Source: a virus (lineage: Duplodnaviria > Heunggongvirae > Uroviricota > Caudoviricetes). Taken from it: a stretch of DNA of 64,000 nucleotides. Positions 13,843-62,180 of this stretch are shown here, one piece after another (within the stretch, counting starts at the first letter, position 1; every line of letters begins with the position of its first letter). Under the pieces are notes generated by a model. That model worked only from the letters and a program-made list of their open reading frames with translations. It was not told the DNA's origin and made no database searches. Where the stretch lies: the IMG/VR virus record IMGVR_UViG_3300046047_000103, one strand, 5' to 3'. A program made the translations under genes and the position numbers.

Positions 13843-14121
13843 TCATAGTCTGTCGTCGGGCTGATGGCAATAGATGCAGTCGTCGTGACCCGGATCGTCA
13901 TCATCGTCATAGATGCAGCTCCCTGTCGGACTGTCCTCGCATGCCCATACTCCAAGATCTGGATGATTGATCCCCGTGATCTCGGATACGATCATCATGA
14001 TCTCAAGATCGTGCCCATTGATGATCCTAGCCCATGTCTTCATGGGCTCACGAGCATTACGGATCTTGTACTGGTGAACCCTGATCTTGGCGATCTCAAC
14101 TGCGGTCGCCGTTCTCATCAC
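13843..14121 (-). CDS. small Cys-rich hypothetical protein
   Basis: 92-aa ORF with C-terminal CIYDDDDDPGHDDCIYCH. Confidence 0.35.
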   Translation of the reverse strand: MMRTATAVEIAKIRVHQYKIRNAREPMKTWARIINGHDLEIMMIVSEITGINHPDLGVWACEDSPTGSCIYDDDDDPGHDDCIYCHQPDDRL

Positions 14122-14729
14122 AGATCCCTCTTGTTGGTGAGATCGATGTCAGATCTGCGCACGACGCTTCCGATGCGCTTGAACTTGTTCTTGGATGGGA
14201 TCAGGTCAAGATCCTTAAGACGGGCTTCCATGGTCTTCGCGGTCACCTTGAATCGTTTCGAGATCTGCTTCACGGTCTTGCCTGCAGTCCATTGCGCGGC
14301 CACGGCGTCCTCCGGCATGGAGAGATTGTATGCGAAGCGTCTGATCCACTTCTTGACGGGCGCGCTGGCATCGTTGCCTGCAAGCTTGATAGCAATCGTG
14401 TCCGTCGATCCGGAGGCATCAAGGGGATCCTGTAGGGCGTAGATACCAAGAGCGATGGCAAGGGCGATCGTCCTGTCCGCTTCAGACACTGTCTCATCAA
14501 GAACGATGGTCGACGGCAGACCGGACTCATGCTTGATGATGACGACGCCGTCCACATGATGATCTCGCGTGATGTTAGGCTTCCTGTACATGGGGATGTG
14601 CAGATCGTTGACAAGAGTTGACGGTGGCACCCTGTCAGCACCGGCTACTGATCTTCCCACTGACGCGATGACCCGCTCGACCGCTCTAGCGGGATCCGTC
14701 TTGATCGTTATGCCTTCCATCAGAATCAC
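14118..14729 (-). CDS. DNA-binding protein with a C-terminal helix-turn-helix
   Basis: TAGKTVKQISKRFKVTAKTMEARLKDL resembles sigma-70 region 4 / an HTH. Confidence 0.45.
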   Translation of the reverse strand: MILMEGITIKTDPARAVERVIASVGRSVAGADRVPPSTLVNDLHIPMYRKPNITRDHHVDGVVIIKHESGLPSTIVLDETVSEADRTIALAIALGIYALQDPLDASGSTDTIAIKLAGNDASAPVKKWIRRFAYNLSMPEDAVAAQWTAGKTVKQISKRFKVTAKTMEARLKDLDLIPSKNKFKRIGSVVRRSDIDLTNKRDL

Positions 14730-14878: not shown

Positions 14879-15298
14879 TTGATGGTCACGATCTTGTATC
14901 CCCGGACGGCGAAGGGGCAGATGCTTGCCCAGATGGCCTATGCGATGGGTGGACGGGCTGCCGAGGAGATCTTCACGGGGACGTCGACCACAGGTGCAAG
15001 CAATGACTTCGAGAAGGCCACGCAGATCGCCAGGGACATGGTGACGAAGTACGGTTACGGATCTGACACCGGGCTTGCAGCGTGGTCATCTGATGACAAG
15101 ATGATGTCAGAATCAACCAGATCTGCCATTGACCGGGAGGTGATCACCCTGCTGAATGATGCCATGGCGACCGCACGGAGGGCTATCACCGTGAACAAGA
15201 CAGTGCTGTCAGATCTTGTTGGCAGGCTGGTCGAGCATGAGACCATCAACGGATCAGAGCTTGATGGCGTGATCGCCAAGGTGTCCGCGGTGGATTGA
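14879..15298 (+). CDS. ftsH: FtsH protease C-terminal fragment. It lacks the AAA and HEXXH parts.
   Basis: VTILYPRTAKG...MGGRAAEEIFTGTSTTGASNDFEKATQIARDMVTKYGYG aligns with FtsH KVTIIPRG...LGGRAAEEI..STGASNDI..AT.IAR.MVT. TTG/ATG start. An in-frame stop 50 nt upstream excludes a longer protein. Confidence 0.55.
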   Translation: MMVTILYPRTAKGQMLAQMAYAMGGRAAEEIFTGTSTTGASNDFEKATQIARDMVTKYGYGSDTGLAAWSSDDKMMSESTRSAIDREVITLLNDAMATARRAITVNKTVLSDLVGRLVEHETINGSELDGVIAKVSAVD

Positions 15299-15308
15299 TC
15301 TTGATATC

Positions 15309-15896
15309 ATGATGCTGTATGGAGGGGAAGGCGTCTTGAATGGAATCATAGTACTGGAAATTGCGGATCTGATGTGCTTGATGATTCTTCCGTCTAGCAT
15401 CGTGATGACTGCCGGTGCACGGCGTCGTGAAGCTGCGGAAGAGTCATTCTTGAAGTCATGGATCGAATTCTGGACGCTGACGAGGGTCATGGCGGTGTCG
15501 ATCATCATCGGCGCGACAGCGCTGTTGAGCGTCATCATTCTTGGACCGATCCATTCGACGTTCGACAATGATGTCAGTGACGGAGCCCGAACTGCTGCCA
15601 TCATGGGTGGCAATGACACTGAATTAGTGTCTGCGTTCAATAAGGACGATGCTGGCGATGATCGCGGCCAAGTGGACAGTGTGGCCGATCTTCTGAAGAG
15701 TCAATTGATCAAGGATGGGTTCATCGTTACCAACGTCAAGTGTGATCCGAAGACGGCAGACGCTGGTGACAAGGTCAGCTGCTCGGTGGATGGACGGATT
15801 CCGGTTCCGTTCGCACCTGACATTCAGATCTCATCGTCCGCATCAGCTCTGTCCGAGGTCAATGCGTCACATAAGACCAGTGCGTCCACATCTTGA
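15309..15896 (+). CDS. membrane-anchored secreted protein with a DUF4333-like two-Cys domain
   Basis: TM helix, then IVTNVKCDPKTADAGDKVSCSVDG (DUF4333-like pattern). Confidence 0.4.
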   Translation: MMLYGGEGVLNGIIVLEIADLMCLMILPSSIVMTAGARRREAAEESFLKSWIEFWTLTRVMAVSIIIGATALLSVIILGPIHSTFDNDVSDGARTAAIMGGNDTELVSAFNKDDAGDDRGQVDSVADLLKSQLIKDGFIVTNVKCDPKTADAGDKVSCSVDGRIPVPFAPDIQISSSASALSEVNASHKTSASTS

Positions 15897-16043
15897 TGTC
15901 CGATAAGCATTGGAATAACAGTAGGGCATTCTCAGTCAATGGACGCGATCTGATTCCAGATGACAAGTAGCTCTTCAAGTTGCATCCGTCGCAGATCTGC
16001 GATATTTTAGTAACGTCAAGTAATCTTATAGGGAGGAAATTCC

Positions 16044-16616
16044 ATGCCGTCATTCTTAACCAAGAAGAATTCGTTCATCGGAGCGGTCATCATTGTAGTC
16101 ATCGTCGTCTTCGTCGGATTCTTCCTCGCCGCGCAGGGCGCTAAGAACTCCGCCATCAAGCAGGAGAACATGATCGAGCGCGAGCAGTCTAATGTCCAGA
16201 CGATCGTGCAGAAGCGTGTTGATGCACTCACTGAGCTCATCAACACCGTCAAGGCGTCTAGCAAGTTCGAGCAGGATACAATCACCAAGCTCACTGATGC
16301 TCGCAGCAAGGCGAAGACCGGTGATATCGAGGGCAGCGCTACCGTTCTTCAGGCGACCGCGGAAGCGTATCCAGATCTGAAGAGCATTGACCTGTTCTCT
16401 CAGGTGAACCAGGAGACCGTCACCATCGAGAATCAGCTGTCGAATTCAAGGCAAGCGTATAACACGGCCATCCGCGACTACAGGAATAAGACGCAGACCT
16501 TCCCGAACAGCAGTCTGCTTGCAATGGCAGGGTACACTGCGAAGGACTACAAGCCGTTCACGGCTAATAGCTCCGCGCAGGACTACGATCCGTCATCTGA
16601 CAATCTCTGGAACTGA
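16044..16616 (+). CDS. lemA: LemA family membrane protein
   Basis: N-terminal TM. VDALTELINTVKAS...AYPDLKS...TENQL..R.AYN.A.RDYN...FP matches the LemA family. Confidence 0.8.
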   Translation: MPSFLTKKNSFIGAVIIVVIVVFVGFFLAAQGAKNSAIKQENMIEREQSNVQTIVQKRVDALTELINTVKASSKFEQDTITKLTDARSKAKTGDIEGSATVLQATAEAYPDLKSIDLFSQVNQETVTIENQLSNSRQAYNTAIRDYRNKTQTFPNSSLLAMAGYTAKDYKPFTANSSAQDYDPSSDNLWN

Positions 16617-16688
16617 TCACATACTGCCGGCACAGTCCGGCACTCATCATTAAGACCGTGTCTATGTTCTTAAGGAAAGAAGACGATC

Positions 16689-17510
16689 ATGTCCTTCCTC
16701 TCTCGGGGAGTACTTGGTAAGCTCAAGGGTCGGACGTTCCTGATCCTGGTGGCCATTCTCACAGGTCTTATCATTCTGACGACGATCAACGCCGTTCTTA
16801 TCAACATGTGGAAGGATCATGACAGCGAGGTCAGGAGTAAGATCATATCTGGTCTCTCCGTGACCACGGCCAAAGATCTTGGCTGGCAGGTGAAGACCCA
16901 GGCGGGCAATCTTGTCGTTCAGGGTAAGGTCACGATCCCGAAGGATCAGTGCGCCAGGTTCAATGAGATGGACGGATCATACTGCGCCGCATCCGTGACG
17001 AAGACCGAGGAGATCTATACCCGTCATGAACGCAAGTATGATTGCGGGGCCGATGCTCATCCGAGGACTTGCACTGAGGTCTATTGGTCATGGGATCTGG
17101 CCGGATCGTGGTCAGATCAGGCAAGCAATGGTGTGATCCTCGGCAAGACGCTCCCGTATTCATGGCTGCGTGCAAGTGAAGACAGAGTGGATCCATCCGT
17201 CATTGGTATCAATGGATGCAGATTTAGGTACTGCTATGAGGGATCTGGCATCAGATACTCATACAAGGCCGCTCCGGGGAGGTATTCAGGGGTCGCTTAT
17301 CTTACATCTGACAGTGATGGCCTGTCAAGCTTCAACGGATTCGATGAAGATGAGACCGCGGATGGAGCGAAGAATGCAGCCCAGCACCCGTCTGTGATTC
17401 CCGACGTCGTGTTCTGGATCGTTGAGTTCATTCTGATGGCAGCTGCCAGCGCTATTGGATTCACCGTCGTCAGGAATGACCTTGATGACGGTGCAGACAA
17501 TGATTTCTGA
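16689..17510 (+). CDS. membrane protein with a Cys-rich extracytoplasmic domain
   Basis: N- and C-terminal TM segments. Downstream of lemA. Confidence 0.5.
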   Translation: MSFLSRGVLGKLKGRTFLILVAILTGLIILTTINAVLINMWKDHDSEVRSKIISGLSVTTAKDLGWQVKTQAGNLVVQGKVTIPKDQCARFNEMDGSYCAASVTKTEEIYTRHERKYDCGADAHPRTCTEVYWSWDLAGSWSDQASNGVILGKTLPYSWLRASEDRVDPSVIGINGCRFRYCYEGSGIRYSYKAAPGRYSGVAYLTSDSDGLSSFNGFDEDETADGAKNAAQHPSVIPDVVFWIVEFILMAAASAIGFTVVRNDLDDGADNDF

Positions 17511-17732
17511 TCTCACCAGTCATCTTCAGATCCAGCTATGCGCAGAAGCATAGACCCTACTGCCATTCTGAACGCAATCAGATCGGTCATGCGCTGGAAA
17601 GCGCGATCTAGTATGACGTTACTTCTTGAACGCTGTTGCGTCTTCAGATGCCAGATCTGTCATCATTGCCTTGACGGCGTGTCTGTCGTCAAGGCATGTT
17701 ATCATTGATGTATCCAATCATAATGGGAAGGC

Positions 17733-20507
17733 GTGAACATGGCATTGTCTACACTGTCCAAGGCTAACACCGCGGTCACCGGTCATAAGACCGTAGGGTT
17801 CATGGGTAGTACGATCAGCAAGCATACGATGACGTTCAGTGAGGACGTCATCCAGATGATCGTCCAGCAGTTGACGGATCTTTACAGTGATCCCATTGCT
17901 GCGACCGTGCGTGAGACCATATCGAACGCGATCGATGCGACCCTGCTGGCGAGGGAGCGGGGTGAGGATGCTCCAGATGTGGACGTGTCGACCCCATCTG
18001 CGTTCAGCCCCACGTTCACGGTGGAAGATCATGGCGTGGGCATGACGAGTGACCAGATCTACTCCAACTTCGCTGACTACGGCAATTCGACGAAGATCGA
18101 TGACATGACCGCAACGGGATCTAAGGGTCTTGGAGCTAAAGCGCCATTGGCCTACACGACGACGTGCGTGGTGTCGACCGTGAAGGATGGTCATAAGATC
18201 ATCCTCACCCTGAATCGTGGTGAGAATTCGAACGAGGCCGAGACCATCTTCGATGGTGATGTTGATGAGCATAATGGTACGAAGATAGAGATCCCGGTCC
18301 GCGCTGAGGATGCGGACAAGTTCCAGGAATGCATCAACAAGTACAAGATGAATGCAGACGCGAGCATCCCCCTGCGGATTGACGGTGAGCCGGCTTACAA
18401 GCAGTTCAATGAGATATGGTCGAAGCTCATCGACTTCCCGATCGCGAAGGACGCTGAGGGCAAAGACATCTATGGCACTCTGTACGTGAAGAAGTCTTAC
18501 ATCCGCCAAGCGTTCAAGGAATGGAGAGATCTTGTCAGAGCAGCCAGTAACCACGATTGGTCGACTGAGGACAGGAACAACATTGCAGAGATAACCTCGG
18601 TGTCGCTGATGGGCTGGAACTATGAGATGCGGGCCGGTCAGTATTACTACACGAAGAACGAGTTCTTGGTCAGGATAGCACCTGGCGTCGTCGACTTCCC
18701 TCCGTCTCGTGATTCGATCAAGCGGAATGACCGTCTTGACAGCCTGCTCGACGCTATCAGAGACGGCATGAAGATCAGGCCGTATGCCCCTGATGAATTC
18801 ACGGAGGAGTTCCCGGCTGCCGTGGCGGAGATCTGGGGATCGATATCCCCGGATGAACGCATCGAGGTTCTTGACCAGATAGCAGATATGGACTTCAAGA
18901 TGGACACCACTGCACTCATGAAGGTCTGGCCTGACGAGGTGAAGCTTTACACTGATGATTATGATGGGAAGTACTTCCGCGCGATTCTCGGATTCAACAT
19001 TCCGTACTCGACGACCTTTCCCATGATATCAAGTTCATTCATCTTCAGGAACAATTCGATGGCAGACAAGACGGAGTCACCGTTGTCCACATTCTCGATC
19101 CATGGGACGTCAGTGCGGAACATCAACATGCTTCTGAACAACTCTGCCGACGATGAGATCAATGATGACAAGACATCTGAGGCGCGTGCTGATGAGATCA
19201 ACGGTCTCTTCCGTGACGATGATGTTCTCGAAGATTGCTCTAAGCTGATCTCTGTCAGAATCGGTTGGATGAAGAAGCACGTATCACTGTTCGCGAGCGA
19301 TTACGCTTCGAACTCATGCCTGACCATCATCAAGGGCAAGTTCGAGGGCAGCAAGTCGTACAGAAGGCTGCGAAGGTACATCAAGTCGGATCAGATCAAC
19401 CATTCATCAAGACAGATCTGCTGCATCGTTGACGGGGATGTGGACGCTCACGACTTTGACGACATGAAGAAGTCCGCGGAGGCTAATCATGTCGAATGGG
19501 GTGGAGTCATCGACTGGGATGACGTGACGGTCAAGAGTAAGACTGTGAAGACTCCAGGCAAGAAGCAGGCCGAGAACGTTCCGGTCAGCGGATACCTGGA
19601 CGCAGCCGTGGGCAGCCCCCTCAGGCAGAGGTTCGCGGTGCTCCTGAACAGGAACGGTTCTTACCCCGACTTCAATGATACGCTTGATCTTCAGGATCTT
19701 AGAGACAATGATGGCACGGTGTGGATCTATTCCAGGAGCTGGGGGAATCGTGACGCTTGCATCTTGCTGACCGAGATGGTGAAGAACCGCGCCGTCGTTG
19801 ATGGAAAGCCGTTCGCTCTGATTAACGCCTCGGACCATGACCATGGACTGCGAGCAGCTGCCTTCAATGTCTTGTCAGGATATGACAAGATTTGGATCGT
19901 GGATGGTACTCCGAAGATCCCGCGCTACAAGGCTATGAAGGACGCTCACATCATCAAGTATGGTAGTGACCCTGGCTTAGCTATGAGCCAGGCTATACTG
20001 TCTGATGCTGACCATTGGTCTGACCTTGTCTATGAGTTCTTGTGTTCGACCGATCTGCTGACAGAGAAGTCGTCACTAGAGGCCAGGTTAATCAATCTGG
20101 CCGAGCAGATCACCGGAACCGTCAAGCATGCCAAGTCTTTTGACGCTAAGATGTACAAGGGCGTTCTTGACGTCATGCTGGAGGCGTCCAAACCTTACCA
20201 GTTCAAGCAGATCGTCGCCCCGTTGCTGAAGAATCCGCCTAAGAACGCCAAGGTGATGGAGGCGGCCAGGGAGCTGGCCTACCATTCCGAGCTTAAGTCC
20301 AAGATCCAGGATGACCAGTCTAACCTTGATGTCGTCATGGTGAAGTCCATGGTGACGACGAATTGGGGATGGGGATCATATGACATTCTCAAGGATCTCC
20401 CCAAGTTTGACCCCTCGACTTCCATGATCGCGCAGTCCATCAAGGAATGGTGGACTGGCTACGCGACCCCGATCTATAAGCATGCCGTCGCTAATTGCGG
20501 ATTCTGA
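17733..20507 (+). CDS. rIIA: rIIA-like protein with an N-terminal GHKL (Bergerat-fold) ATPase domain
   Basis: N box TVRETISNAIDA, G1 VEDHGVGMT and G2 GSKGLGAKAPLAY. 924 aa. A ~319-aa partner follows, as in T4 rIIA/rIIB. Confidence 0.55.
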   Translation: MNMALSTLSKANTAVTGHKTVGFMGSTISKHTMTFSEDVIQMIVQQLTDLYSDPIAATVRETISNAIDATLLARERGEDAPDVDVSTPSAFSPTFTVEDHGVGMTSDQIYSNFADYGNSTKIDDMTATGSKGLGAKAPLAYTTTCVVSTVKDGHKIILTLNRGENSNEAETIFDGDVDEHNGTKIEIPVRAEDADKFQECINKYKMNADASIPLRIDGEPAYKQFNEIWSKLIDFPIAKDAEGKDIYGTLYVKKSYIRQAFKEWRDLVRAASNHDWSTEDRNNIAEITSVSLMGWNYEMRAGQYYYTKNEFLVRIAPGVVDFPPSRDSIKRNDRLDSLLDAIRDGMKIRPYAPDEFTEEFPAAVAEIWGSISPDERIEVLDQIADMDFKMDTTALMKVWPDEVKLYTDDYDGKYFRAILGFNIPYSTTFPMISSSFIFRNNSMADKTESPLSTFSIHGTSVRNINMLLNNSADDEINDDKTSEARADEINGLFRDDDVLEDCSKLISVRIGWMKKHVSLFASDYASNSCLTIIKGKFEGSKSYRRLRRYIKSDQINHSSRQICCIVDGDVDAHDFDDMKKSAEANHVEWGGVIDWDDVTVKSKTVKTPGKKQAENVPVSGYLDAAVGSPLRQRFAVLLNRNGSYPDFNDTLDLQDLRDNDGTVWIYSRSWGNRDACILLTEMVKNRAVVDGKPFALINASDHDHGLRAAAFNVLSGYDKIWIVDGTPKIPRYKAMKDAHIIKYGSDPGLAMSQAILSDADHWSDLVYEFLCSTDLLTEKSSLEARLINLAEQITGTVKHAKSFDAKMYKGVLDVMLEASKPYQFKQIVAPLLKNPPKNAKVMEAARELAYHSELKSKIQDDQSNLDVVMVKSMVTTNWGWGSYDILKDLPKFDPSTSMIAQSIKEWWTGYATPIYKHAVANCGF

Positions 20508-20582
20508 CGGCAAGGCGTTTTCATTCCGTCAGCCCAATGATATAATGAGAAGTGAGCAAGTACATAAGATGGTAAGGAGAAG

Positions 20583-21542
20583 ATGATGGCAACTGTAACC
20601 AGTCTGTCCGGGAACTATAACACGCTGAACAAGGAGTACGACGAACTTCACGGCGCGCTTACTCTCGATGACGGGACTATGAAGACGTTCACCCTGCAAG
20701 GAGGTGGTGACCGCACCGAGGAATTCGATTCCATCGTCAAGGGCATCGATGAGGGTGTAAGCAATGCTGAGCTTGCTGAACTCATCTTGAAGGCGTCGGA
20801 TAAGATCGGCATCGTCGAATCCAGGATCTCATCGAATCTGGAGTCGATCGGATTTGATGATCGTCTGACGAGAAGCGGCAACCGCATCTTCGTTGACGGT
20901 GAGCCGATCGACCCGGTTCTTGAGCGCGAGATCTTGTCCATTCTCAATCATGAGTCCGCGTCAAGCGAGGATGACAACTCCAGGAACTGGAAGTCCCTGC
21001 TCATGTTCGTCAAGGATCTGTACTCGAACAGTAATGAGTACGTCCGGGGGCAGCTGTTCTCATGGCTCAAGGCGAACTTCGAGTCTTCGTCCAAGGGCTT
21101 CACGCTGCTTGACGATGGACGGATCGTCGGGTACAAGGGCGTTGCGCGTACGGATGACGGAACGCCGCAGAGCTCGTACACCGGTCTTGGTCTGGTCAAG
21201 GAGAAGGGCGAGACCGAGTTCCATGAGGTGAATGGCCATATCCCGAATAAGATCGGCTCCACCATCTCCATGCCGCGTAGCCTTGTCACTAATGACCCTA
21301 ACATTGGCTGCGCTCCGGGTCTGCATATCGGAACATGGGACTACGCTTACTCATGGGGCAACGGGTATGTCCTCACGGTCGCGTTCAGCGCGTCTGACGT
21401 GGTAAGCGTCCCTGTGGACTCCGGGTTCAAGAAGCTTCGTGTCTGCAAGTATGAGGTTCTGAACGTCACCGAGACGCCGCATCATGACATCAGTCTTGAC
21501 TATGATGATGACGACGACGAATATGATGATGGAGAGGATTGA
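20583..21542 (+). CDS. rIIB: rIIB-like protein (tentative) with an acidic C-terminal tail
   Basis: 319 aa, immediately downstream of the rIIA-like gene. The size matches T4 rIIB (312 aa). No independent motif evidence. Confidence 0.35.
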   Translation: MMATVTSLSGNYNTLNKEYDELHGALTLDDGTMKTFTLQGGGDRTEEFDSIVKGIDEGVSNAELAELILKASDKIGIVESRISSNLESIGFDDRLTRSGNRIFVDGEPIDPVLEREILSILNHESASSEDDNSRNWKSLLMFVKDLYSNSNEYVRGQLFSWLKANFESSSKGFTLLDDGRIVGYKGVARTDDGTPQSSYTGLGLVKEKGETEFHEVNGHIPNKIGSTISMPRSLVTNDPNIGCAPGLHIGTWDYAYSWGNGYVLTVAFSASDVVSVPVDSGFKKLRVCKYEVLNVTETPHHDISLDYDDDDDEYDDGED

Positions 21543-21832
21543 TCTGTAGTCAAGATCTGTCATCTTTAATGGCGTGACTTCCTGATATCTTGCCAGTGGA
21601 AGTCACGCCATTTTTCATATAAGGAGCCTGTCATGGCATTACCTAGAAGAGCCCGTCCGAGAGACCTTGAAGAGTACTCCGAGCCTGCGCCTGAGGTCAC
21701 CAGCACACCGAGTCAGATCCATTTTGATCTACCATCATATGGGGTTCGAAGCCGATCGTCATCCCCGATCCGGAGAGACCTGACCTTGAGGAGCATAAGC
21801 CTTCCGCAGATCACGGATCTAAGCATGACGCC

Positions 21833-22375
21833 ATGAGGGAGCAGTCGAGACCGGCCGTGCAGCCACCTGACCGCAGTCCAGCGCATCCAGATCCGGCTGT
21901 GAAGGAAGCAGGGGCTTCAGGATCTGATACTAGTCTGATAGCATTAGCCTTCGCCGTGGCCGGTCTCCCTCCATTCGCCTTGTTCATCGTGGTAGCCGTA
22001 TGGCTACTGAGCGGGAACGTCATGACCGGTCTGTTCACGGCCGGGCTTCTGATCTTACTACTTCCGGTCATTGGACTGGCGATGGGTATCATGGCTCTTG
22101 TCAAGAAGGGTAAGATGACGGCGATGGTCGCATCCGCGCTCGCTATCGTGCTTTCACTGATCTCACTGTCCGCATTCGGGATCGTGTACATGCGCAGGAG
22201 CGAGATCGTATCTAATGTGGAGTCCGGGATAGCCGGTCTCGTGTCATCGCAGATGGAGAAGAGTCTTGCGGGTGGATCGTCCAATAATGGATCCGGTGCT
22301 ACAGGGTCGGACGCAGTCCCGCCAGCTCCGGTACCATCAGACGACCCGCTCTATGATGAGATCAGCAACAGTTAA
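21833..22375 (+). CDS. polytopic membrane protein
   Basis: About four hydrophobic helices, then a Ser/Gly-rich tail. Confidence 0.45.
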   Translation: MREQSRPAVQPPDRSPAHPDPAVKEAGASGSDTSLIALAFAVAGLPPFALFIVVAVWLLSGNVMTGLFTAGLLILLLPVIGLAMGIMALVKKGKMTAMVASALAIVLSLISLSAFGIVYMRRSEIVSNVESGIAGLVSSQMEKSLAGGSSNNGSGATGSDAVPPAPVPSDDPLYDEISNS

Positions 22376-22386
22376 GGAGTGATCAT

Positions 22387-22995
22387 ATGATACGCGCAAT
22401 ACAGAGGGTAAGATCCCATCACGGATGGACGGGCATGCTTGTACTTCTCGGATCTGGAATGGGTCTGCTGGCATCGTTCATGCTTTCACTGGAAGCATAC
22501 TGGCGGGCGCTGAACCCGACTCAGGTGTTCTCATGTGACGTGAACGCGAAGCTCTCATGCTCCAGCGTGGCCGCGTCATGGCAGTCCACGCTCTTGCACT
22601 GGCCGGGCGGTGGAGCTATCCCGAACGCATTCCTCGGTCTTGGCATCTTCGCCGTGTTCGTGACGATCGGCGTGTTCATAGCGAGTCACGCGACCATCCC
22701 GGAATGGATACTCTGGGGCTTCAGATTGGGGGTCGTCGCTGAGCTGGTGTTCTCGACCTGGCTGTTATGGGAGTCGATGTTCGTGATCGGTGCGATGTGC
22801 CCATGGTGCCTGACCATGGATCTTGGATCCATCTTGCTTGCATTCGGTGCGTTCAGGGACTGGGCGCTTGCGAAGGGCGATCGGCATCCCAGAGCGTTGA
22901 GATTCACGATCGGAATGGAATCCCTGCTGGTATCTGTTCTCATCTTGCTAGCATTCGCCTTCATTGTCGTCTTGCATTACTTTGGATCAATTTAG
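22387..22995 (+). CDS. vitamin K epoxide reductase (VKOR) homolog
   Basis: Loop Cys pair CDVNAKLSC (Cx7C) plus the active-site CPWC in a TM helix. Polytopic. Confidence 0.65.
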   Translation: MIRAIQRVRSHHGWTGMLVLLGSGMGLLASFMLSLEAYWRALNPTQVFSCDVNAKLSCSSVAASWQSTLLHWPGGGAIPNAFLGLGIFAVFVTIGVFIASHATIPEWILWGFRLGVVAELVFSTWLLWESMFVIGAMCPWCLTMDLGSILLAFGAFRDWALAKGDRHPRALRFTIGMESLLVSVLILLAFAFIVVLHYFGSI

Positions 22996-23057
22996 TTTTG
23001 CAAAGCCCGTGATCTTTTGATATGATCGTATCATGTTCAATATGAGAGGAGCAGTGA

Positions 23058-24305
23058 ATGGCAAGCGCATCTAAAGCGGCAGTCCAGAGGGTCACCCCGG
23101 CTAAGGCTGACATTGATTCAGAGTTGCGGAAGGCTAGAGACCTTGCTGGAGCTACGAGGAAGTCGTATGACGAGCTTGACGGGCAGGTGGCGAAGACTAT
23201 TAAGACCATCTTCGATGTCAAGTCAGATAAGGATTCGACCCAGCTTGAGCATGTCTATGAGTTGCATGAGAAGTATTCTAACCTCGGCGCTGATGCGCTG
23301 AAGGGTCTCATGCCGGATCTGACGAACGAATCGTTCAACGTCTCCATGAAGGAGCTTGACTACGGATCAGAGGCTAGCAAGGACATCTCCAAGACCCTTG
23401 CCAAGGTGTCTGACTCCCTGGCTGATCTTGATGCTTCCAAGATCAGCCACCGGCCTAGCAACGCCTTGCTCAGGGCGGTCTATGATCCCGTGCGCGGGTT
23501 CTTCAACCGGAGCAGGAAGGCCGGCGCCGTCATCGAGAGCTGCATGAAGACGCTGACGAAGTACGAGCTGTCCCTGATATCAGACATCGCTGCGTACAAT
23601 AAGGACAGGGTGAGAGCTGCGAAGTGCGCTGAGGTGGCCACCCAGCAGGCGGAACTAGCCGATGAGATCATCAAGGAGCTCCGCAAGCAGCTTGCTTCCA
23701 TGACGTTCGACGAGTCCAACATCGATCTGAAGAATGCGATCGAGTCGGAGGTGCTTGCCACGCTTGAACGCAGGAAGACCGATCTGCTTGAGATCGCCAC
23801 CGGCCAGGCTACATACATCGCGTCCATTGATCTGCTCTCGAAGACGCATTACAAGATTCTTGAGATCGTGAAGAGCACGAAGAACACGGCTGTCATCCAG
23901 TTCCGTTCCGCGGTCCAGGTCGCGCACGGGATCTATGTCCAGGAGACCGCTCGCAAGGCTGTACTCACCACGAACAAGGCAAGCTCTGATCTTGACATGG
24001 ACAATGCGGTGAACTTGAAGGAGTCCGTTAAGAACATCAGTGATGTCAGTCATGTACTGCATGACAACATTGATTCCATGTCCGCAGCGCTGAACACGGT
24101 TCTGGAAGCCCATGACGCATTCAAGAGTGCTGAGGCGTCATCTGCCGACGTGGCGAGGGACGCTGCCGAGAGAGCGCAGAAGCAGCTCCGTCTCATGAAC
24201 AAGAAGCTGGAGCAGTCGAAGATTCTTGACGATACGAGAAACGATCTGCTGGCTAAGATCACCTCGTCGTCACATGAAGATGCGGCGGATGGTGATGTCC
24301 AGTGA
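23058..24305 (+). CDS. TelA/KlaA-like coiled-coil protein (tentative)
   Basis: 415 aa, all-helical and coiled-coil rich. The resemblance to TelA is weak and recalled from memory. Confidence 0.35.
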   Translation: MASASKAAVQRVTPAKADIDSELRKARDLAGATRKSYDELDGQVAKTIKTIFDVKSDKDSTQLEHVYELHEKYSNLGADALKGLMPDLTNESFNVSMKELDYGSEASKDISKTLAKVSDSLADLDASKISHRPSNALLRAVYDPVRGFFNRSRKAGAVIESCMKTLTKYELSLISDIAAYNKDRVRAAKCAEVATQQAELADEIIKELRKQLASMTFDESNIDLKNAIESEVLATLERRKTDLLEIATGQATYIASIDLLSKTHYKILEIVKSTKNTAVIQFRSAVQVAHGIYVQETARKAVLTTNKASSDLDMDNAVNLKESVKNISDVSHVLHDNIDSMSAALNTVLEAHDAFKSAEASSADVARDAAERAQKQLRLMNKKLEQSKILDDTRNDLLAKITSSSHEDAADGDVQ

Positions 24306-24408
24306 CCAAGATGCAGGAAGGCCCCTCCAGACGCGCGAGACTGCGTTCTAAACGCCGTTCCCATGTTGGATGCGTTTCCCTTCATAATGTGGCGTCTATG
24401 GTGTTAGC

Positions 24409-25035
24409 GTGTCGTCTGTCAATGGAGGAAGGATCATGAAGCATAGTGGAGTGATCAGTGAGAAATGGTGGTCAGTTCTTGACAAGAAGCGCGCTGAGAT
24501 GCGGTTGGCAGATAGTCAGCCGGGTGATCATCCAACGGACAATGACCCCGATGTGTCCAGCGAACGATTTGATCAGAAAAGAACGCTGGACGATCTTATC
24601 CAGGAGCTGCAGTCCATCAAGTACAAGAGGTACGATGGTGACGGCACTGTTCCAGTGGCCATCGCGTACCGTGATGATTCAGATCAGATCTCCATGGGAG
24701 CTGTTCTGGTTGACTGCAATGATGCTGACAGTCAGGTCATTCTGTCGGCAGATCGTCAGAACACGGTCATTGACGGCCTTGCGTCGAATGATGATTCCAG
24801 GTATGATGACGATGATGAAAGCATGACTGACCGGGTCATGAGGGTGGCGAAGGCTATCCATTCTGACGATATTGGAACGATCAATCACGCCAGGGCTGCT
24901 TATGACGAGTCCGTGTACACGGCTGCCAAGATAGCTGACGGTCTTGTCGAATCTACGCTTGAAGACTACCCGGACACTGACGAGGGTTGGGATGCAGCCG
25001 TTGCTTCCGCCATTCAGATCAACGGTGATCAGTGA
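24409..25035 (+). CDS. hypothetical acidic protein
   Basis: 208-aa ORF. Confidence 0.45.
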   Translation: MSSVNGGRIMKHSGVISEKWWSVLDKKRAEMRLADSQPGDHPTDNDPDVSSERFDQKRTLDDLIQELQSIKYKRYDGDGTVPVAIAYRDDSDQISMGAVLVDCNDADSQVILSADRQNTVIDGLASNDDSRYDDDDESMTDRVMRVAKAIHSDDIGTINHARAAYDESVYTAAKIADGLVESTLEDYPDTDEGWDAAVASAIQINGDQ

Positions 25036-25056
25036 TGGTCCAGTGAGGATGTCGAG

Positions 25057-25698
25057 ATGCAAGATCGTAAGTGTGAGGGTTGCTGGAGAAGAATAATGAG
25101 AAGAACATTCAATGATGAGAATAAGGTCCAATCAGTCGTAGACGGTCTTAAGATCAGGCCGATAGCGAATGGATGGTTGAAGAGCAGGGCTGTGGACAGG
25201 CTTGCCCTCAGTGAGGACGCTATCGATGCGTACTCCGTGCAGGCGAGGAACGTGAAGACGTACACGATGAAGTCGACGTATGAGGACATCACCCCTGAAC
25301 GCAGATGGGCGATGGCGTCGACCATCCGTAGGAGCCCGGGTCCGTTCGTCGCAAGGCTTGGTAGGGAACTGGCCGCTGCCGCGTTCCTTGAGAAGCCGGC
25401 CGCCATGCGAGTCGAGACGATCACGACTGAAGACATGTTCACAGATGAAGACGAAGATGAAGCATTCGCTCTTCATTATGATGAAGGATGGGAAGATCGG
25501 GTGAATGACAAGTTCACTGGAGAGATATCCGTCATCATCGATATGGAAGACTCCCCGCAGAGTGATGTAGATCTGATGGTAAGATGGTTGAAGGACACGG
25601 GGGCATACAAGCTGTTCGATACCGTTGATGGACCTAAGGCGTCTTATCGTGTCCATAGGGTGAGATCAACGGTCAGCGAGTATCTTCCATTCGACTGA
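25057..25698 (+). CDS. hypothetical protein
   Basis: 213-aa ORF. Confidence 0.45.
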   Translation: MQDRKCEGCWRRIMRRTFNDENKVQSVVDGLKIRPIANGWLKSRAVDRLALSEDAIDAYSVQARNVKTYTMKSTYEDITPERRWAMASTIRRSPGPFVARLGRELAAAAFLEKPAAMRVETITTEDMFTDEDEDEAFALHYDEGWEDRVNDKFTGEISVIIDMEDSPQSDVDLMVRWLKDTGAYKLFDTVDGPKASYRVHRVRSTVSEYLPFD

Positions 25699-25707
25699 GG
25701 AGGTCAG

Positions 25708-26109
25708 ATGTCTTCAAAGAATGCTAGACGCAGGCGCCGGCAGGATCTTATGAAGCGGCGTGAGCAGAGAAGGGAACGGGCGGAGCGTGAGATCGCCGCT
25801 GGAAAGAAGCGAGCATTGCTGGCAAGTTCTGGCGATGATAAGCCCGTTGATGATCAACCGGTAGTACAAGCGGTGAAGACGGCACCGGACAGACGATCAG
25901 TCAAGCGAAAGGTCGACGTGAAGATGCAGCAGGACATCAAGGATCTTGCCGGGAGACTACGGAAGCAGAACGCTGAGGATCAGCATGCTGCAAGCAGGAA
26001 GAACTCATCTGCGTCCAGATCTCGCAAGCAGGTCGTGGTAAGAATCATTGCTGTCATCGCGGCGGTGGCCACGTTAGGAATGTTCATCGTTCCGTCACTG
26101 CTGCTTTAG
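25708..26109 (+). CDS. basic protein with a C-terminal membrane anchor
   Basis: Arg-rich N-terminus and a C-terminal TM (VRIIAVIAAVATLGMFIV). Confidence 0.4.
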   Translation: MSSKNARRRRRQDLMKRREQRRERAEREIAAGKKRALLASSGDDKPVDDQPVVQAVKTAPDRRSVKRKVDVKMQQDIKDLAGRLRKQNAEDQHAASRKNSSASRSRKQVVVRIIAVIAAVATLGMFIVPSLLL

Positions 26110-26129
26110 TATGATCGGGGGATCATAGT

Positions 26130-27071
26130 TTGCGCATATCTTACACAACAATGAGGCACATATTCCACCAGCATGCAAGACATAAGGCCACCCGGTCGGG
26201 TGCGATCATATCACTGAATCGTAGGATCTCGCTAGTTCTGATAGCGGCCGCTGTCAGCATCGTATCCGCACTGACCGTCATTGATCGTCGTGCGGATGGA
26301 GCGGCAGGACCAGCTGCTTACACGGCTACCAGGACATGGAAGGAACCGGCCGTCAACAGTGATAGCACCGAGGTCTCCAGATCTGGACGGCGGCGTGCCC
26401 TGTTGACCGAGTCCACGTCAACAGATGCCGAGGGAAGCTGGGATCTTGGAGACGAGGAAGATATCGGCAAGAATCTTCAAGATCAGGCTAATGATCAGTC
26501 GAAGGCTATTGAGATCAGGTCGCGGATGACGGGCGACATCAATGGATGGAAGACGCTTGACAGCACTGCGTACACGGTTGACAGCTGGGCTGAATACTCG
26601 TCTGATCTTGATGCTGCCAATGATCTTGTCCATGACGGCAGTCTTGACGTCTCCGCTCTGCAGTCCACGCTTGACGATCTGGAACGATCCCACGCCGCCC
26701 TCAAGACCGTTCCCAAGATCGCTCCGGCGGTCAATCAAGGGCATGCGTCTGTTCCGAGCGGGCCAACCGTCCCGGTCAATGAGATCCAATCATACGCTCA
26801 TGATAAGGTCGTCAGCCGCGGATGGAGTGAGGCTGACTTCACCGCTCTTGTCTGGTTATGGAATCGGGAGTCAGGATGGAATCCGAATGCGTCTAATGCG
26901 TCATCAGGCGCGTACGGGATACCGCAGTGTCTTGGCCATGCGGAGTGTCAGTCCGATGCGTTCAAGACTGACTACAGGGTCCAGGTCGACTGGGGTCTCG
27001 GATATATTGCCGGCAGGTACGGTACCCCGTCGACAGCGCAGCAGCACAGTCTGTCTACAGGATGGTACTGA
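26130..27071 (+). CDS. membrane-anchored transglycosylase-like (IsaA/SceD/Rpf-type lysozyme-like) domain protein
   Basis: ESGWNPNASNASSGAYGIPQ matches the ESGGNYNAVNPSSGAAGKYQ transglycosylase-like signature. N-terminal TM. Confidence 0.5.
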   Translation: MRISYTTMRHIFHQHARHKATRSGAIISLNRRISLVLIAAAVSIVSALTVIDRRADGAAGPAAYTATRTWKEPAVNSDSTEVSRSGRRRALLTESTSTDAEGSWDLGDEEDIGKNLQDQANDQSKAIEIRSRMTGDINGWKTLDSTAYTVDSWAEYSSDLDAANDLVHDGSLDVSALQSTLDDLERSHAALKTVPKIAPAVNQGHASVPSGPTVPVNEIQSYAHDKVVSRGWSEADFTALVWLWNRESGWNPNASNASSGAYGIPQCLGHAECQSDAFKTDYRVQVDWGLGYIAGRYGTPSTAQQHSLSTGWY

Positions 27072-27904
27072 TGGCCGGCGGTGAAGACATGGATGAGCGC
27101 AAGATCTTAAGGGTGCGGTTCGTGATACCGGTCAAGTACTATAAGGGATCAAACACGAATGATGTCCCTGCGGTGTCCAGGAGCAAGAGTCAGTGGCTGC
27201 GACGGTATGGTGAACAGGTCTGGTCTGACGCGATCAGGAGAGACTTCGGGATCGTGGCGGATGAGCCCGACGACTGGAAGAAGTCCAGTACGGCGTACTC
27301 ACCATCAGAGCAGAAGACCCATGACGCATTCACGGATCAGGATATGATCGTGGAGACCGCTTCCAATCTGGTGAAGACGCTTGAGGCCGATCATGAGAAC
27401 ATCCGTACGACCCTGCATGATGTGGACAAGAAGTCGTATGAGCATGCCGAGCTGAAGGCGCAGCTTGCTTCCATCGAGGATGATCTGAAGACGGCGAAGC
27501 GGCGTCTTCAGATCGAGTCGAAGCTGTTGACGAAGACGCGGAATGCGTTCAAGACTGCCCACAGCCGTCAGGACTCCAGAAGGTCAAGGGCGGATCGGAA
27601 GTCATACATCAAGGAGAAGTCCAGGCTGAATGAGGGCAAGCTCTTGTTCCCAGGACGGGTCACTCTCGATGTCAGATCTAATATCATAACAGCCCATGAC
27701 TTTGATGCTCCGAACTGCTGGCCGTCCGTGAAGCCATTGCAAGACGGGGGTACAGACACTTGCATCTTATGGCATGATGACAACAACAACTTCATCACGC
27801 GGACAAGCTTCTACGGCGGAGGCAAGGAAGACAGCAAGAACTATGTGATCGATATGATCGTCCGTGAGGACGATGGTGACGGATCAGATCCGTTCCGTGA
27901 CTGA
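27062..27904 (+). CDS. hypothetical protein
   Basis: 280-aa ORF with a coiled-coil segment. Confidence 0.45.
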   Translation: MVLMAGGEDMDERKILRVRFVIPVKYYKGSNTNDVPAVSRSKSQWLRRYGEQVWSDAIRRDFGIVADEPDDWKKSSTAYSPSEQKTHDAFTDQDMIVETASNLVKTLEADHENIRTTLHDVDKKSYEHAELKAQLASIEDDLKTAKRRLQIESKLLTKTRNAFKTAHSRQDSRRSRADRKSYIKEKSRLNEGKLLFPGRVTLDVRSNIITAHDFDAPNCWPSVKPLQDGGTDTCILWHDDNNNFITRTSFYGGGKEDSKNYVIDMIVREDDGDGSDPFRD

Positions 27905-28003
27905 TCATCCCTCTGACTGATTGCAGGTTGGATTCAAGCGATGGTACAATGATCATTGCATCATGTCCATATGGAATGATCCATCGATCTACAAGGAGTT
28001 TAA

Positions 28004-29407
28004 GTGTCTATAGAGTTCATAGGGGTGGCTGCTATCGGCGTCATTGTCTTTCTGCTCGTATGGTTCTTGGTCAGCAGGTACAAGACGCCTACCATCAATG
28101 AAGCGTACATCATATCCGGCTCGACGAGCCGTGACTCGGAGGGGAACAAGTCCGTCCGCGTTCTGAGAAGTCGTGGAGGCTTCGTCTGGCCCATCTTCAA
28201 CAGGGTCGTCAGCATCTCCCTCCGTTCTCATCAGATCAGCACTGAATGCGAGGCGATCTCCAAGGATAAGATCAAGATCAAGCTCAAGGTCGTCACCACA
28301 TTCAAGGTGAATGACACCGAGGAAGACATCCGTCTTGCCGGGCAACGATTCTCCAAGCAAGAACAGCTCATGGAACCGTACGTGAAGGAGATCATTGAAG
28401 GCTCCATGCGTTCGATCGTCGGCGGCCTCTCGGTCGAGAGTCTGTTGAGTGATCGTGTCGAGTTCACGAAGCAGGTCAGAACTGAGGTCGCGGATTCGAT
28501 TGAGATCCAGGGTCTTAGACTTGATACGCTTCAGGTCCAGGACATCAGTGACCAGACCGGTTACATCGATGCGCTCGGCGCTCCGCAGGAAGCATCCGTG
28601 AAGAGGGATGCGGCGATCGCGGAGGCGAACGCTAAGCAGGAAGCCCAGAAGGCGCAGATCAGTGCTGACAAGGTCATTGCCCAGAGCCAGAAGGATCTGG
28701 CATTGCAGCAGGCTTCCATCAAGGCCGAGACCGGTAAGGCAGACGTGAACGCAGATGCCGTCAAGAATCTTGAACAGCAGGCGCAGAACAGGAAGATCGC
28801 AGAGGCCGAGGCGCTGGCCGAGGCCGAGAACGTGAAGCTTCAGAGAGTCAGGCTTGAATCTGAAGTGAACACGAAGGCCGACGCTGAGAAGTACAGGCGT
28901 CGTACTGAGGCCGAGGCGCAGGCTGAGGTCACGAAGCAGAACGCTGCCGCCGATGCCGAGTCCACAAGACTGAGCGCAGAGGCGTCCGCCAAGGCTATTA
29001 AACTTGAGGGCAATGCGAAGGCTGCCGCCGTGAGGGCGCAGGGTCTGGCTGAGGCCGAGGCGATGAACAAGAAGGCTGAGGCGTACCGTAAGTATGGTCA
29101 GGCCGCATTGCAGTCCCTGATCATCGAGAAGCTGCCGGAGCTTGCATCTGCCATCAGCAAGCCGCTTGAAGGCGCGAAGATCACGTCGGTTGGTACTGAC
29201 GCGCAGGACAGGACGTCGGGCCTTGTCACCGATCTTGCCGCCAAGCTGCCGACACTCGTGAACACGCTCACCGGTGTGGATCTTGCCGGGTCGCTTCGGA
29301 AGCTCGCTAATGGTAAGGCTGATGCTGACGCCGAGGCGCCCTCAGACAGCGCTGAATCTAAGAATGATGCTGCCGACGCCCTGGTCGAGACGACAGATGA
29401 GAAGTAG
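28004..29407 (+). CDS. SPFH/band-7 flotillin-like protein
   Basis: N-terminal TM, an SPFH core, and a long Ala/Glu/Lys coiled-coil (EAEA repeats) typical of flotillins. Confidence 0.8.
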   Translation: MSIEFIGVAAIGVIVFLLVWFLVSRYKTPTINEAYIISGSTSRDSEGNKSVRVLRSRGGFVWPIFNRVVSISLRSHQISTECEAISKDKIKIKLKVVTTFKVNDTEEDIRLAGQRFSKQEQLMEPYVKEIIEGSMRSIVGGLSVESLLSDRVEFTKQVRTEVADSIEIQGLRLDTLQVQDISDQTGYIDALGAPQEASVKRDAAIAEANAKQEAQKAQISADKVIAQSQKDLALQQASIKAETGKADVNADAVKNLEQQAQNRKIAEAEALAEAENVKLQRVRLESEVNTKADAEKYRRRTEAEAQAEVTKQNAAADAESTRLSAEASAKAIKLEGNAKAAAVRAQGLAEAEAMNKKAEAYRKYGQAALQSLIIEKLPELASAISKPLEGAKITSVGTDAQDRTSGLVTDLAAKLPTLVNTLTGVDLAGSLRKLANGKADADAEAPSDSAESKNDAADALVETTDEK

Positions 29408-29432: not shown

Positions 29433-29475
29433 AATGGCGTCATAGAAATCAATCTATGACGCCATTCTCGTATTC
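29433..29475 (+). terminator. Rho-independent terminator-like hairpin after the flotillin gene
   Basis: aatggcgtcatag-aaatcaat-ctatgacgccatt gives a 13-bp perfect stem, followed by a T-rich run. Confidence 0.55.
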
Positions 29476-33743: not shown

Positions 33744-33893
33744 GTAATCTAAATATAATTGTAGATCTCACGGAATGCAAATTCTTATAGTCTTCTGAAG
33801 TCCATCATATCATGGATCGTGTCTGATAGCAACCTGTAGACGAACGATTCTTATACTGATCTATCGTTGCAGTCTCAACGAATCCGTATGATC

Positions 33894-36633: not shown

Positions 36634-36725
36634 GCTTCCTCCATGTTCTTATACGGCTCATAGTACCATAAGAAGATATTCAAGATGGCCCTTGTCAACA
36701 GGATGGGATATGATGATCACATAGG

Positions 36726-38597: not shown

Positions 38598-38605
38598 GCT
38601 TCCTC

Positions 38606-62089: not shown

Positions 62090-62180
62090 CACGCCGTGGG
62101 AACACGATTGTCAACGACCGTGTTATCATGGATAACGCCGCGCTTCACGGAGCGTCGATAACTTAAGAATGCACCATCAA

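Follow-up and report, generated by a model that had tools for sequence, protein, structure and literature searches.

A conserved rIIA-rIIB-g180-VKOR-TelA-g208 gene order in a membrane-related block of a jumbo phage with a probable actinobacterial host

The 64,000-nucleotide stretch of phage DNA analysed here (the window; IMG/VR record IMGVR_UViG_3300046047_000103) carries, at positions 14879-29407, a block with 17 plus-strand open reading frames (ORFs), and every sizeable ORF of the block lies on this strand. At its centre, the genes rIIA, rIIB, g180, VKOR, TelA and g208 follow one another in an order that is kept in eight phage lineages, in spite of extensive rearrangement of the genes around them; as far as genome comparison can tell, this argues that the six genes are held together by selection. 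The stretch is tentatively read as an expanded rII locus that would serve envelope maintenance and the timing of lysis, with VKOR aiding the formation of disulfide bonds in exported phage proteins. This reading is given slightly less than an even chance of being correct.

A sequence-only reading of the same DNA had described a phage-borne, co-directional 14.5-kb block of membrane-integrity genes, and its phage-borne nature, its coordinates and its strand were all right. Profile searches bore out the homologies proposed for the FtsH fragment, LemA, rIIA, rIIB, VKOR, TelA, the transglycosylase and the SPFH protein. Likewise, a hydropathy scan upheld the topologies given for g273 (two transmembrane, TM, segments), g180 (polytopic) and g133 (basic and tail-anchored); the TM and hairpin calls reported here come from simple scans, based on hydropathy in the case of TM segments. 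The idea that all the products act at the membrane has to be qualified for the FtsH fragment, g208, g213 and g280, which lack a membrane feature of their own.

Gene order in related phages

Relatives were chosen by the similarity of their rIIA proteins, a procedure that misses carriers of VKOR or TelA devoid of rII. The order rIIA, rIIB, g180 family, VKOR, TelA, none or one ORF, and g208 family is preserved in the window as well as in the relatives L012 (the same as L008), L003, L043, L046, L004, L006 and L044, among which the rIIA proteins are 32-41% identical. The surroundings of this core are different from one lineage to another. The genes that border it in L043, L004, L006 and L044 have their homologues elsewhere in the window, at distances of 11-35 kb to one side or the other of the block, and window genes from 36-55 kb adjoin the block in L012, L043 and L004. 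The genes that follow flotillin in L012 are those of window positions 36.7-39.2 kb in inverted orientation, and in L043 and L046 the transglycosylase gene has moved across the topoisomerase. The maintenance of the core amid such rearranged flanks argues for selection, beyond shared ancestry. Synteny with related phages holds for the six-gene core, and it does not extend to the FtsH fragment with g195, to the orientation of LemA and g273, or, outside L012, to flotillin.

Comparison of the window with L012 showed that synonymous divergence is saturated (dS>1), and that the ratio of nonsynonymous to synonymous substitution (dN/dS) is approx. 0.11 for flotillin, 0.13 for LemA, and 0.21 for both rIIB and VKOR. 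Low ratios at this degree of divergence indicate constrained, long-resident genes instead of recent debris. Regarding the search for further relatives, a scan of IMG/VR with a VKOR alignment yielded one relative; scans of IMG/VR with rIIA alone and with a TelA alignment found nothing, and neither did a scan of the genome collection with a flotillin alignment, which used uninformative N-terminal patterns.

The rIIA and rIIB proteins

To our knowledge, the biochemical function of rIIA and rIIB is still unsolved, although the genes have been studied since the 1950s. In this phage, rIIA (17739-20507, plus strand) encodes a protein of 922 residues composed of an N-terminal GHKL (Bergerat-fold) ATPase domain and a long family-specific C-terminal region. 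It matches phrog_612 (E 3.9e-43) only over its N-terminal part of approx. 180 residues, as well as HATPase_c_3 (E 5.7e-8), and the ATPase motifs E59/N63/D66 (ExxxNxxD), D97xGxG101 (DxGxG) and G127..G130xG132 (GxxGxG) are invariant in 60 homologues. A model obtained with AF2 (AlphaFold2) had a predicted local distance difference test (pLDDT) score of 78 and a predicted template-modelling score (pTM) of 0.70. A Foldseek search of BFVD with this model retrieved the rIIA proteins of KVP40, RB43, and Streptomyces and Rhodococcus phages with E values of 1e-18 to 1e-22; these matches cover approx. 900 aligned columns, yet their template-modelling scores are only 0.27-0.43. The best matches among solved structures (PDB) were the N-terminal and middle domains of Hsp90/TRAP1 (E 6e-12, template-modelling scores 0.25-0.47), and the model thus suggests an Hsp90-like architecture for rIIA.

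The rIIB gene (20583-21542, plus strand) starts 75 nucleotides after rIIA, and it comes after rIIA in every relative examined. Its product matches phrog_609 (E 2.4e-29) and four further rIIB families of PHROG, and a precomputed annotation assigns it to PF26926 (Phage_T4_rIIB); no match was obtained with the local copy of Pfam. No TM segment was predicted in rIIA or rIIB by the hydropathy scan. It has been reported that the rII proteins of T4 are membrane-associated, that they counter the membrane-depolarising RexAB system, and that their genes sit beside anti-defence genes; in other phages the counter-defence gene pCARD is found next to rIIAB (PMC10312443). The pair described here resembles the T4-type locus in its adjacency, and its products match, by profile and by fold, those of T4-like, Vibrio, Streptomyces and Rhodococcus phages; it differs from that locus by its extension with g180, VKOR, TelA and g208. 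These four genes are not found alongside rII in Streptomyces phage Faust and Aerococcus phage AVP; together with L045, a still more distant rIIA locus, these isolate phages have none of the extra genes.

The genes that extend the rII pair

The first of the additional genes is split in this phage. The ORF g67 (21633-21836, plus strand) is the N-terminal piece of a g180-family gene, and its beginning, MALPRR..., matches the starts of the orthologues in L003, L012, L008 and L043. It overlaps at an ATGA with g180 (21833-22375, plus strand), which encodes a polytopic protein with three TM segments and no cysteines, and lies between rIIB and VKOR. In the relatives, both parts form a single ORF of 310-384 residues. 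A random sequencing error does not account for the split, given that it is identical in two independent assemblies. Iterative searches with jackhmmer placed members of the family at the equivalent position in L003, L008, L012, L043, L044, L046, L004 and L006, and marginally in L047.

The VKOR gene (22387-22995, plus strand) encodes a protein of the actinobacterial type with a strong match to the Pfam VKOR family (E 5.4e-28, 98.2 bits versus a gathering score of 27.5). Four TM segments exceed the threshold of the scan and there is room for a fifth. Five phage sequences share without exception the residues C50, C58 and C138-P-W-C141, which make up the loop pair and the CxxC motif; by its sequence, the protein is a member of the quinone-dependent thiol oxidoreductase family with its catalytic residues intact. 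Actinobacteria depend on VKOR to re-oxidise an oxidoreductase of the DsbA/MdbA type, in an oxidative folding pathway represented by VKOR of Mycobacterium tuberculosis and by MdbA/VKOR of Actinomyces oris. The phage protein has in common with this pathway the family, the intact loop pair and CxxC, the four to five TM segments, and the fact that its nearest cellular relatives are from Actinomycetota. It differs in being phage-encoded, in being only 32-40% identical, and in having no fused or adjacent thioredoxin-like partner.

No PHROG family corresponds to VKOR, and among GenBank phages it was found only in three unannotated metagenomic records (human-faecal "Bacteriophage sp."); in two of these three, which were examined, no other gene of the block is near. 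A search of the full-text literature returned no report of a VKOR encoded by a phage. On these three grounds, a phage-encoded VKOR appears to be new. It would imply that these phages rely on, and reinforce, the formation of disulfide bonds in the envelope of actinobacteria; inhibitors known to act on bacterial VKOR could be directed at this step. Capture of the whole set from a host as a unit was considered and rejected, since in bacteria the VKOR loci have no other gene of the block adjacent.

TelA (23058-24305, plus strand) follows VKOR in all close relatives, and it is also present in L047. Its product matches Pfam TelA over profile positions 39-328 of 332 (E 8.2e-17, 61.7 bits versus 30), and it is predicted to be soluble and helical, without TM segments. 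It had no tblastn match in GenBank phages, its profile met no solved structure among PDB sequences, and no TerB, TerC, TerD or TerF domain was detected, either among the products of the block or among the further window ORFs that were scanned. Stand-alone TelA genes have been noted in jumbo phages (Iyer et al. 2021, PMC7824862). The gene described here is of the same kind, in that it belongs to the TelA family, stands alone and is carried by a jumbo phage; in contrast, it is fixed beside VKOR and rIIAB and its probable host is actinobacterial instead of proteobacterial.

The core ends with g208 (24409-25035, plus strand), which encodes an acidic soluble protein with orthologues in L003, L012, L043, L046, L044, L006 and L004. 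It has no Pfam match, and a profile search of the PDB gave a single non-significant match (E 0.86). The family forms only four clusters among 1.84 billion representatives, and from these searches it seems to be restricted to this phage clade.

Division of the block into units

The sequence-only reading took the block as one module, a view that did not survive the scan for intergenic hairpins. About a dozen strong hairpins are present in the 64-kb window and three of them divide this stretch. The first, terminator-like (17667-17696, plus strand; 13-bp stem, z = -3.6), is located between g273 of the LemA cassette and rIIA. The second (21568-21612, plus strand), detected only once longer loops were allowed in the scan, follows rIIB and has a 15-bp stem, a subsequent run of T, and a loop with an extended -10-like element, TGATAT; the intergenic region downstream of rIIB likewise contains a strong hairpin in each of the relatives inspected (8/8). 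The third (29433-29466; 14-bp stem, z = -5.5 on both strands) closes the block after flotillin and faces the converging minus-strand topoisomerase genes. A weaker, non-significant hairpin is present downstream of g195. The four units bounded in this way are the FtsH fragment with g195, LemA with g273, rIIA with rIIB, and a 7.8-kb unit that runs from g67/g180 through VKOR, TelA, g208, g213, g133, the transglycosylase and g280 to flotillin. The possibility that everything from rIIA to flotillin constitutes one hairpin-free unit was rejected by the hairpin at 21568-21612. One further ORF of 56 codons (17538-17708, plus strand) lacks a ribosome-binding site and contains the 13-bp terminator hairpin, so that it is probably no gene.

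Extended -10-like elements of the form TGATAT(nnT) are present at 20538, 21583 and 23018, that is 40-50 nucleotides upstream of rIIB, g67/g180 and TelA, respectively; possible -35 partners are TTTTCA for the rIIB element and TTTGCA for that of TelA. These are three of the four well-placed elements of this kind in the 64-kb window, and TGATAT also occurs in the equivalent spacer, downstream of the rIIB hairpin, in L004, L006, L043, L044 and L046. By their sequence and position they may be conserved early promoters, a hint of early transcription by the host polymerase.

Proposed role of the locus

According to the reading of the stretch as an expanded rII locus, the genes would be read early by the host RNA polymerase. 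rIIA, as an Hsp90-like GHKL ATPase, and rIIB would work at the inner membrane face, as in T4, and prevent premature membrane collapse or abortive infection, while TelA, flotillin and LemA would scaffold or stabilise the membrane. VKOR would transfer electrons from a host oxidoreductase of the MdbA/DsbA type to menaquinone and would sustain disulfide formation in the exported phage proteins that carry cysteine pairs, i.e., the transglycosylase, g273 and g195. The exported transglycosylase would pre-load the wall and be restrained until the membrane is de-energised at lysis, as is the case for Tgl of Kayvirus. The net effect would be envelope upkeep and control of lysis timing over a long latent period. 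The presence of TelA-like and flotillin proteins fits with this proposal in that both take part in the envelope-stress responses of Gram-positive bacteria, and the earlier statement that several members of the block come from bacterial envelope-stress families was correct. The proposal builds on observed homology and intact catalytic residues, on the topology predicted for the products, on the boundaries between units, and on the conservation of linkage together with purifying selection; activities, timing and physical interactions are inferred from gene content. A more specific version, in which rIIA/rIIB, g180, VKOR, TelA and g208 would form one membrane-associated system that couples rII to envelope redox and to a sub-membrane TelA scaffold, is considered unlikely.

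Several observations weigh against the reading of the stretch as an expanded rII locus. The conserved hairpin after rIIB implies that rII and the VKOR-TelA unit are possibly transcribed separately, so that their adjacency need not mean a joint function. The number of promoter-like sequences across the region does not exceed that of shuffled sequences (16 versus 12.3 +/- 3.2), and the excess of TM proteins is modest (8 of 15 in the block versus 14 of 57 elsewhere in the window; Fisher p=0.036); the conserved order amid rearranged flanks is stronger evidence of a non-chance arrangement than this enrichment. Apart from VKOR itself, the 64-kb window encodes no exported CxxC protein that could serve as its thioredoxin-fold partner, which would then be the host's or encoded elsewhere in the 350-kb genome. 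Several relatives can do without flotillin, several without LemA and g273, and several without the FtsH fragment; for each relative only +/-10 kb was seen, and the products were compared by tblastn and iterative hidden Markov model searches. Finally, neither VKOR nor TelA is obligatory: the more distant L047 has the order rIIA, rIIB, a g180-like gene and TelA, and further on a g133-like gene, the transglycosylase and g280, without VKOR, and in L048 VKOR is located four genes after rIIB and TelA is not detectable.

One alternative is that the genes have no joint function at all, and are auxiliary genes independently acquired by a permissive early region, their order reflecting ancestry and few recombination break-points. 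The division into four units, the coming and going of the accessory parts, the non-obligatory character of VKOR and TelA, and the bacterial VKOR loci free of other block genes would all be expected from it. It leaves unexplained that the core is contiguous in eight lineages as divergent as stated above with scrambled flanks, that an association of rII with VKOR or with TelA recurs in two further, distant lineages, and that g180 and g208 are clade-specific and not host imports; it is considered quite unlikely. Still, the present data cannot separate the reading as an expanded rII locus from this alternative or from those presented below together with the genes on which they bear.

With respect to novelty, the sequence-only reading knew of no described module of such composition. 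This appears correct for the linkage of rII, VKOR and TelA, and it needs correction for TelA in jumbo phages (PMC7824862) and for the combination of a basic TM protein, an SPFH protein and a transglycosylase in Kayvirus (PMC7150955). Overall, rII loci, jumbo-phage TelA, the LemA and Band-7 families of PHROG, and the SPFH/transglycosylase cluster of Kayvirus are already known, and the conserved rIIAB-g180-VKOR-TelA-g208 linkage appears to be new. A clade in which rII stays linked to VKOR, TelA and two clade-specific proteins despite heavy rearrangement offers concrete, testable partners for rII. If the core were truly one system, it would provide a new handle on rII, and phage VKOR would represent a class of auxiliary genes that take over oxidative folding in actinobacterial hosts; if the genes are merely co-located, the gain hardly goes beyond a helpful annotation for a clade of metagenomic jumbo phages.

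The distal genes and a possible lysis module

Beyond the core, the fourth unit continues with g213 (25057-25698, plus strand), which encodes a soluble protein without a family match and with orthologues only in L003 and L012 (50-55% identity). It is followed by g133 (25708-26109, plus strand), whose very basic product (34 K+R) has a single C-terminal TM anchor; L003 and L012 have orthologues, and L047 a marginal one, located immediately before its transglycosylase gene. The transglycosylase (26130-27071, plus strand) matches phrog_12661 (E 3.4e-21) and NCBIfam NF052397 (AggPromo_Cterm; E 4e-26, 91.3 bits versus 40). It has a C-terminal lytic-transglycosylase domain of the IsaA/SceD/Apf type and a weak N-terminal membrane anchor, and it is predicted to be exported. 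The motif N-R-E-S-G-W (within W-N-R-E-S-G-W), which includes the putative catalytic Glu-Ser, is kept in all six orthologues, and P-Q-C-L-G-H-x-E-C, with its C-x5-C pair, is conserved in the lineages that bear VKOR. The end of this gene is overlapped by g280 (27062-27904, plus strand), which encodes a soluble protein for which only sub-threshold profile matches suggest a central coiled coil; its orthologues are directly after the transglycosylase in L003, L012 and L047.

The last gene of the unit encodes an SPFH/flotillin protein of 467 residues (28004-29407, plus strand) with a TM segment at residues 5-23. It matches Band_7 (E 3.1e-24, 86.4 bits versus 23.6) and, at a score below the cut-off of 27, the Flot domain (E 7.5e-5, 23.3 bits). 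The alignment with NCBIfam FloT spans residues 8-434 (E 1.2e-68, 232 bits), and remains below the equivalog cut-off of 700 bits. Only L012 has the gene in the same position, with 79-81% identity; it is absent from this site in L003, L004, L006, L043, L044 and L046.

This set of genes calls to mind the tgl region of Kayvirus, where tgl has a host-type early promoter and adjoins the SPFH gene mbpS and the basic TM gene mbpV, and where Tgl is exported by Sec and lyses cells only upon loss of the proton-motive force (PMC7150955). In both cases a basic single-TM protein, an SPFH protein and an exported transglycosylase of the IsaA/SceD type are encoded in a cluster of a large phage with a Gram-positive host. 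The likeness is one of component types, and there are differences: here there is no nearby holin or LysK-type endolysin, an additional gene, g280, is inserted, the SPFH protein is a flotillin type of 467 residues, and the basic protein is anchored by its C-terminus instead of its N-terminus.

From this parallel, it could be proposed that g133, the transglycosylase, g280 and flotillin are an accessory lysis module that, together with rII as a 'rapid lysis' locus, would mainly execute and time lysis, and would not protect the membrane. The correspondence with the lytic module of Kayvirus, component for component, the preservation of the g133-transglycosylase-g280 order even in the distant L047, and the placement of rIIA and rIIB under lysis in the PHROG classes are consistent with this proposal. 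It is more difficult to reconcile with the absence of any recognised holin or canonical endolysin in the block, its flanks or the window scans, with the departure of the transglycosylase from the core in L043 and L046, and with VKOR, TelA and g208, which have no known role in lysis. This alternative is deemed possible, on the unlikely side; it overlaps the reading as an expanded rII locus and does not exclude it.

The LemA and g273 cassette

The LemA gene (16044-16616, plus strand) encodes a protein with a TM segment at residues 11-29 that matches Pfam LemA (E 1.5e-25, 90.2 bits versus a cut-off of 26.2) and phrog_1383 (E 4.7e-27). Its homologues are 85% identical in L012 and 76% in L003, and in both they are encoded on the opposite strand. 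Next to it, g273 (16689-17510, plus strand; phrog_3886, E 8.4e-17) encodes a protein with TM helices at both ends and six cysteines between them. The intervening Cys-rich domain of approx. 200 residues is presumably extracytoplasmic. The homologue search yielded just four proteins, in which C88, C99, C119 and C128 are invariant, and an AF2 model based on the four-sequence alignment was too poor for use (pLDDT 49). The gene adjoins LemA in L003, L012, L041 and L042.

A similar pair is present in two phages of Firmicutes, the temperate Latilactobacillus phage TMW 1.46 P1 and the 165-kb Lysinibacillus phage LC76P1. There too, LemA is followed, directly or one gene later, by a two-TM protein of the g273 family (phrog_3886), and the identity to the pair described here is only 24-35%. 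The inversion in relatives and the occurrence in Firmicutes phages set LemA and g273 apart from the rest of the block, and on this comparative evidence they are an independent mobile two-gene membrane cassette. Its existence in phages of two phyla provides a genetic context for the uncharacterised LemA family.

These features raise the alternative that TelA, LemA with g273, and flotillin would serve superinfection exclusion or competition between phages, by altering the membrane so that DNA injection by a second phage is blocked. Such a role has been proposed for the TelA/Ter genes of jumbo phages (Iyer et al., PMC7824862); in the temperate Latilactobacillus phage, the pair lies between the early genes and the RinA/terminase genes, a typical position for a moron, and the Cys-rich domain of g273 is predicted to be outside the membrane. 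On the other hand, none of the ten block products scanned matched a PADLOC defence model at E<=0.001; the sole hit under the limit of 0.01 was that of ZorA to LemA (E 0.006, 13 bits). Exclusion would also leave VKOR, the transglycosylase and the tight linkage with rIIAB unexplained, and no experimental precedent for LemA or flotillin was found in the literature. It is accordingly regarded as improbable.

The FtsH fragment and g195

The block begins with a gene for a C-terminal fragment of FtsH (14879-15298, plus strand) that matches Peptidase_M41 (PF01434, E 1.4e-30) only over profile positions 58-189 of 191. It consists of the stand-alone C-terminal helical subdomain of the M41 protease, lacking the AAA+ module, the HEXXH motif and TM segments, and its similarity to cellular FtsH begins approx. 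20 residues past the HEXXH of the latter. No upstream remnant of FtsH was found in any frame. The best non-self matches are fragments of cellular FtsH, with 40-46% identity. A recent host-derived pseudogene is unlikely, given that this identity does not exceed 46% and that the frame of 139 codons is intact.

The adjacent gene, g195 (15309-15896, plus strand), encodes a predicted membrane-anchored protein with a C-terminal pair of cysteines, C145 and C158. It had been called a DUF4333-like lipoprotein, an assignment that has to be abandoned: there is no match to DUF4333 even at E<=10, and no lipobox, since no cysteine follows the membrane anchor. Neither Pfam, PHROG nor NCBIfam gave a match. 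Orthologues of the FtsH fragment and g195 were not found in the rII locus of any relative, and L012 has no gene in the place between its M78-like gene and its LemA pair; among the loci of relatives seen, both genes are found only in this phage.

FtsH forms complexes with SPFH proteins, as in HflK/C-FtsH, and it is inhibited by CIII of phage lambda; in Bacillus subtilis, FloT/YuaG and the TelA-like YceH belong to the envelope-stress genes controlled by sigma-W. A flotillin, a TelA and a piece of FtsH are likewise co-located in this phage, and the way in which FtsH and SPFH proteins are known to work together offers a reason for a phage to carry both. Unlike the known complexes, the FtsH piece lacks both the ATPase module and the zinc site; it is confined to this phage and belongs to another unit, 13 kb away from flotillin.

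Source genome, probable host and surroundings of the block

The rIIA protein on record, whose start coincides with the ATG at 17739, comes from a JGI metagenome contig of 349,703 bp, i.e., a jumbo phage. In addition to the block, the window (1-64000) encodes a class Ib ribonucleotide reductase (NrdE) with NrdI, a primase, an RNA ligase and a split type IA topoisomerase, and an array of seven tRNA genes was identified with ARAGORN at 62016-63879. The contigs of the relatives span 291-491 kb, and one relative is a member of the IMG/VR viral contig collection. The size of the contig, the tRNA array, NrdE/NrdI, the primase, the RNA ligase and the relative present in IMG/VR support the phage origin of the stretch.

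At the DNA level, megablast detected zero similarity between the block and GenBank phages. The closest rIIA proteins of isolates are those of Streptomyces phages, with approx. 29% identity across the first third. All of the confirmed bacterial relatives of VKOR (28/28) are from Actinomycetota, with 32-40% identity; Candidatus Ancillula hodotermitis is the top one (40%), followed by Actinotalea, Actinomyces, Timonella and Nanopelagicales. The FtsH fragment has few named relatives, from Actinomycetota and other phyla, with Actinomycetota among the top scorers. On the basis of these rIIA, VKOR and FtsH relatives, the host is probably an actinobacterium.

Regarding the genes that surround the block, a DUF805 membrane protein (E 6e-17) is encoded at 8671-9507, upstream of NrdI/NrdE, and a gene similar to ImmA/IrrE-type M78 peptidases (E 9.3e-6; 14118-14729, minus strand) lies between NrdE and the block, the same place that it occupies in L012. 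The type IA topoisomerase, on the minus strand, is formed by two abutting ORFs, 31083-32504 for the N-terminal part and 30025-31083 for the C-terminal part; Toprim was detected in the orthologues of the N-terminal part in relatives. The split is also present in L003, L043 and L046, and a single ORF of 915-917 residues is found in L004 and L044. Another series of predicted membrane proteins (398, 200, 284, 429, 485 and 192 residues) is encoded at 32547-39184 on the minus strand; it had zero Pfam matches, and zero PHROG matches among the four proteins scanned. Three genes of this series (36726-39184) are directly after flotillin in L012. In L048 (1-22481), rIIA-rIIB and VKOR are surrounded by genes for an M50 site-2 protease, an S26/S24-like peptidase, ThyA, DHFR and an IS605-type transposase.

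The composition of the window is also peculiar. GATC sites number 1143, versus approx. 250 expected, the palindrome CAGATCTG occurs 43 times, and the AT-only hexamers TTTAAA, AAATTT, ATTAAT and TATATA are missing. The dinucleotides GA, AT and TC are over-represented (approx. 1.45), and TA (0.57) and AA/TT (approx. 0.7) are scarce; this genome-wide bias explains the excess of GATC and CAGATCTG, and the idea of a specific motif was rejected. Within the tRNA array, ARAGORN reported at 63070-63147 a tRNA-like gene with a four-base anticodon (actg).

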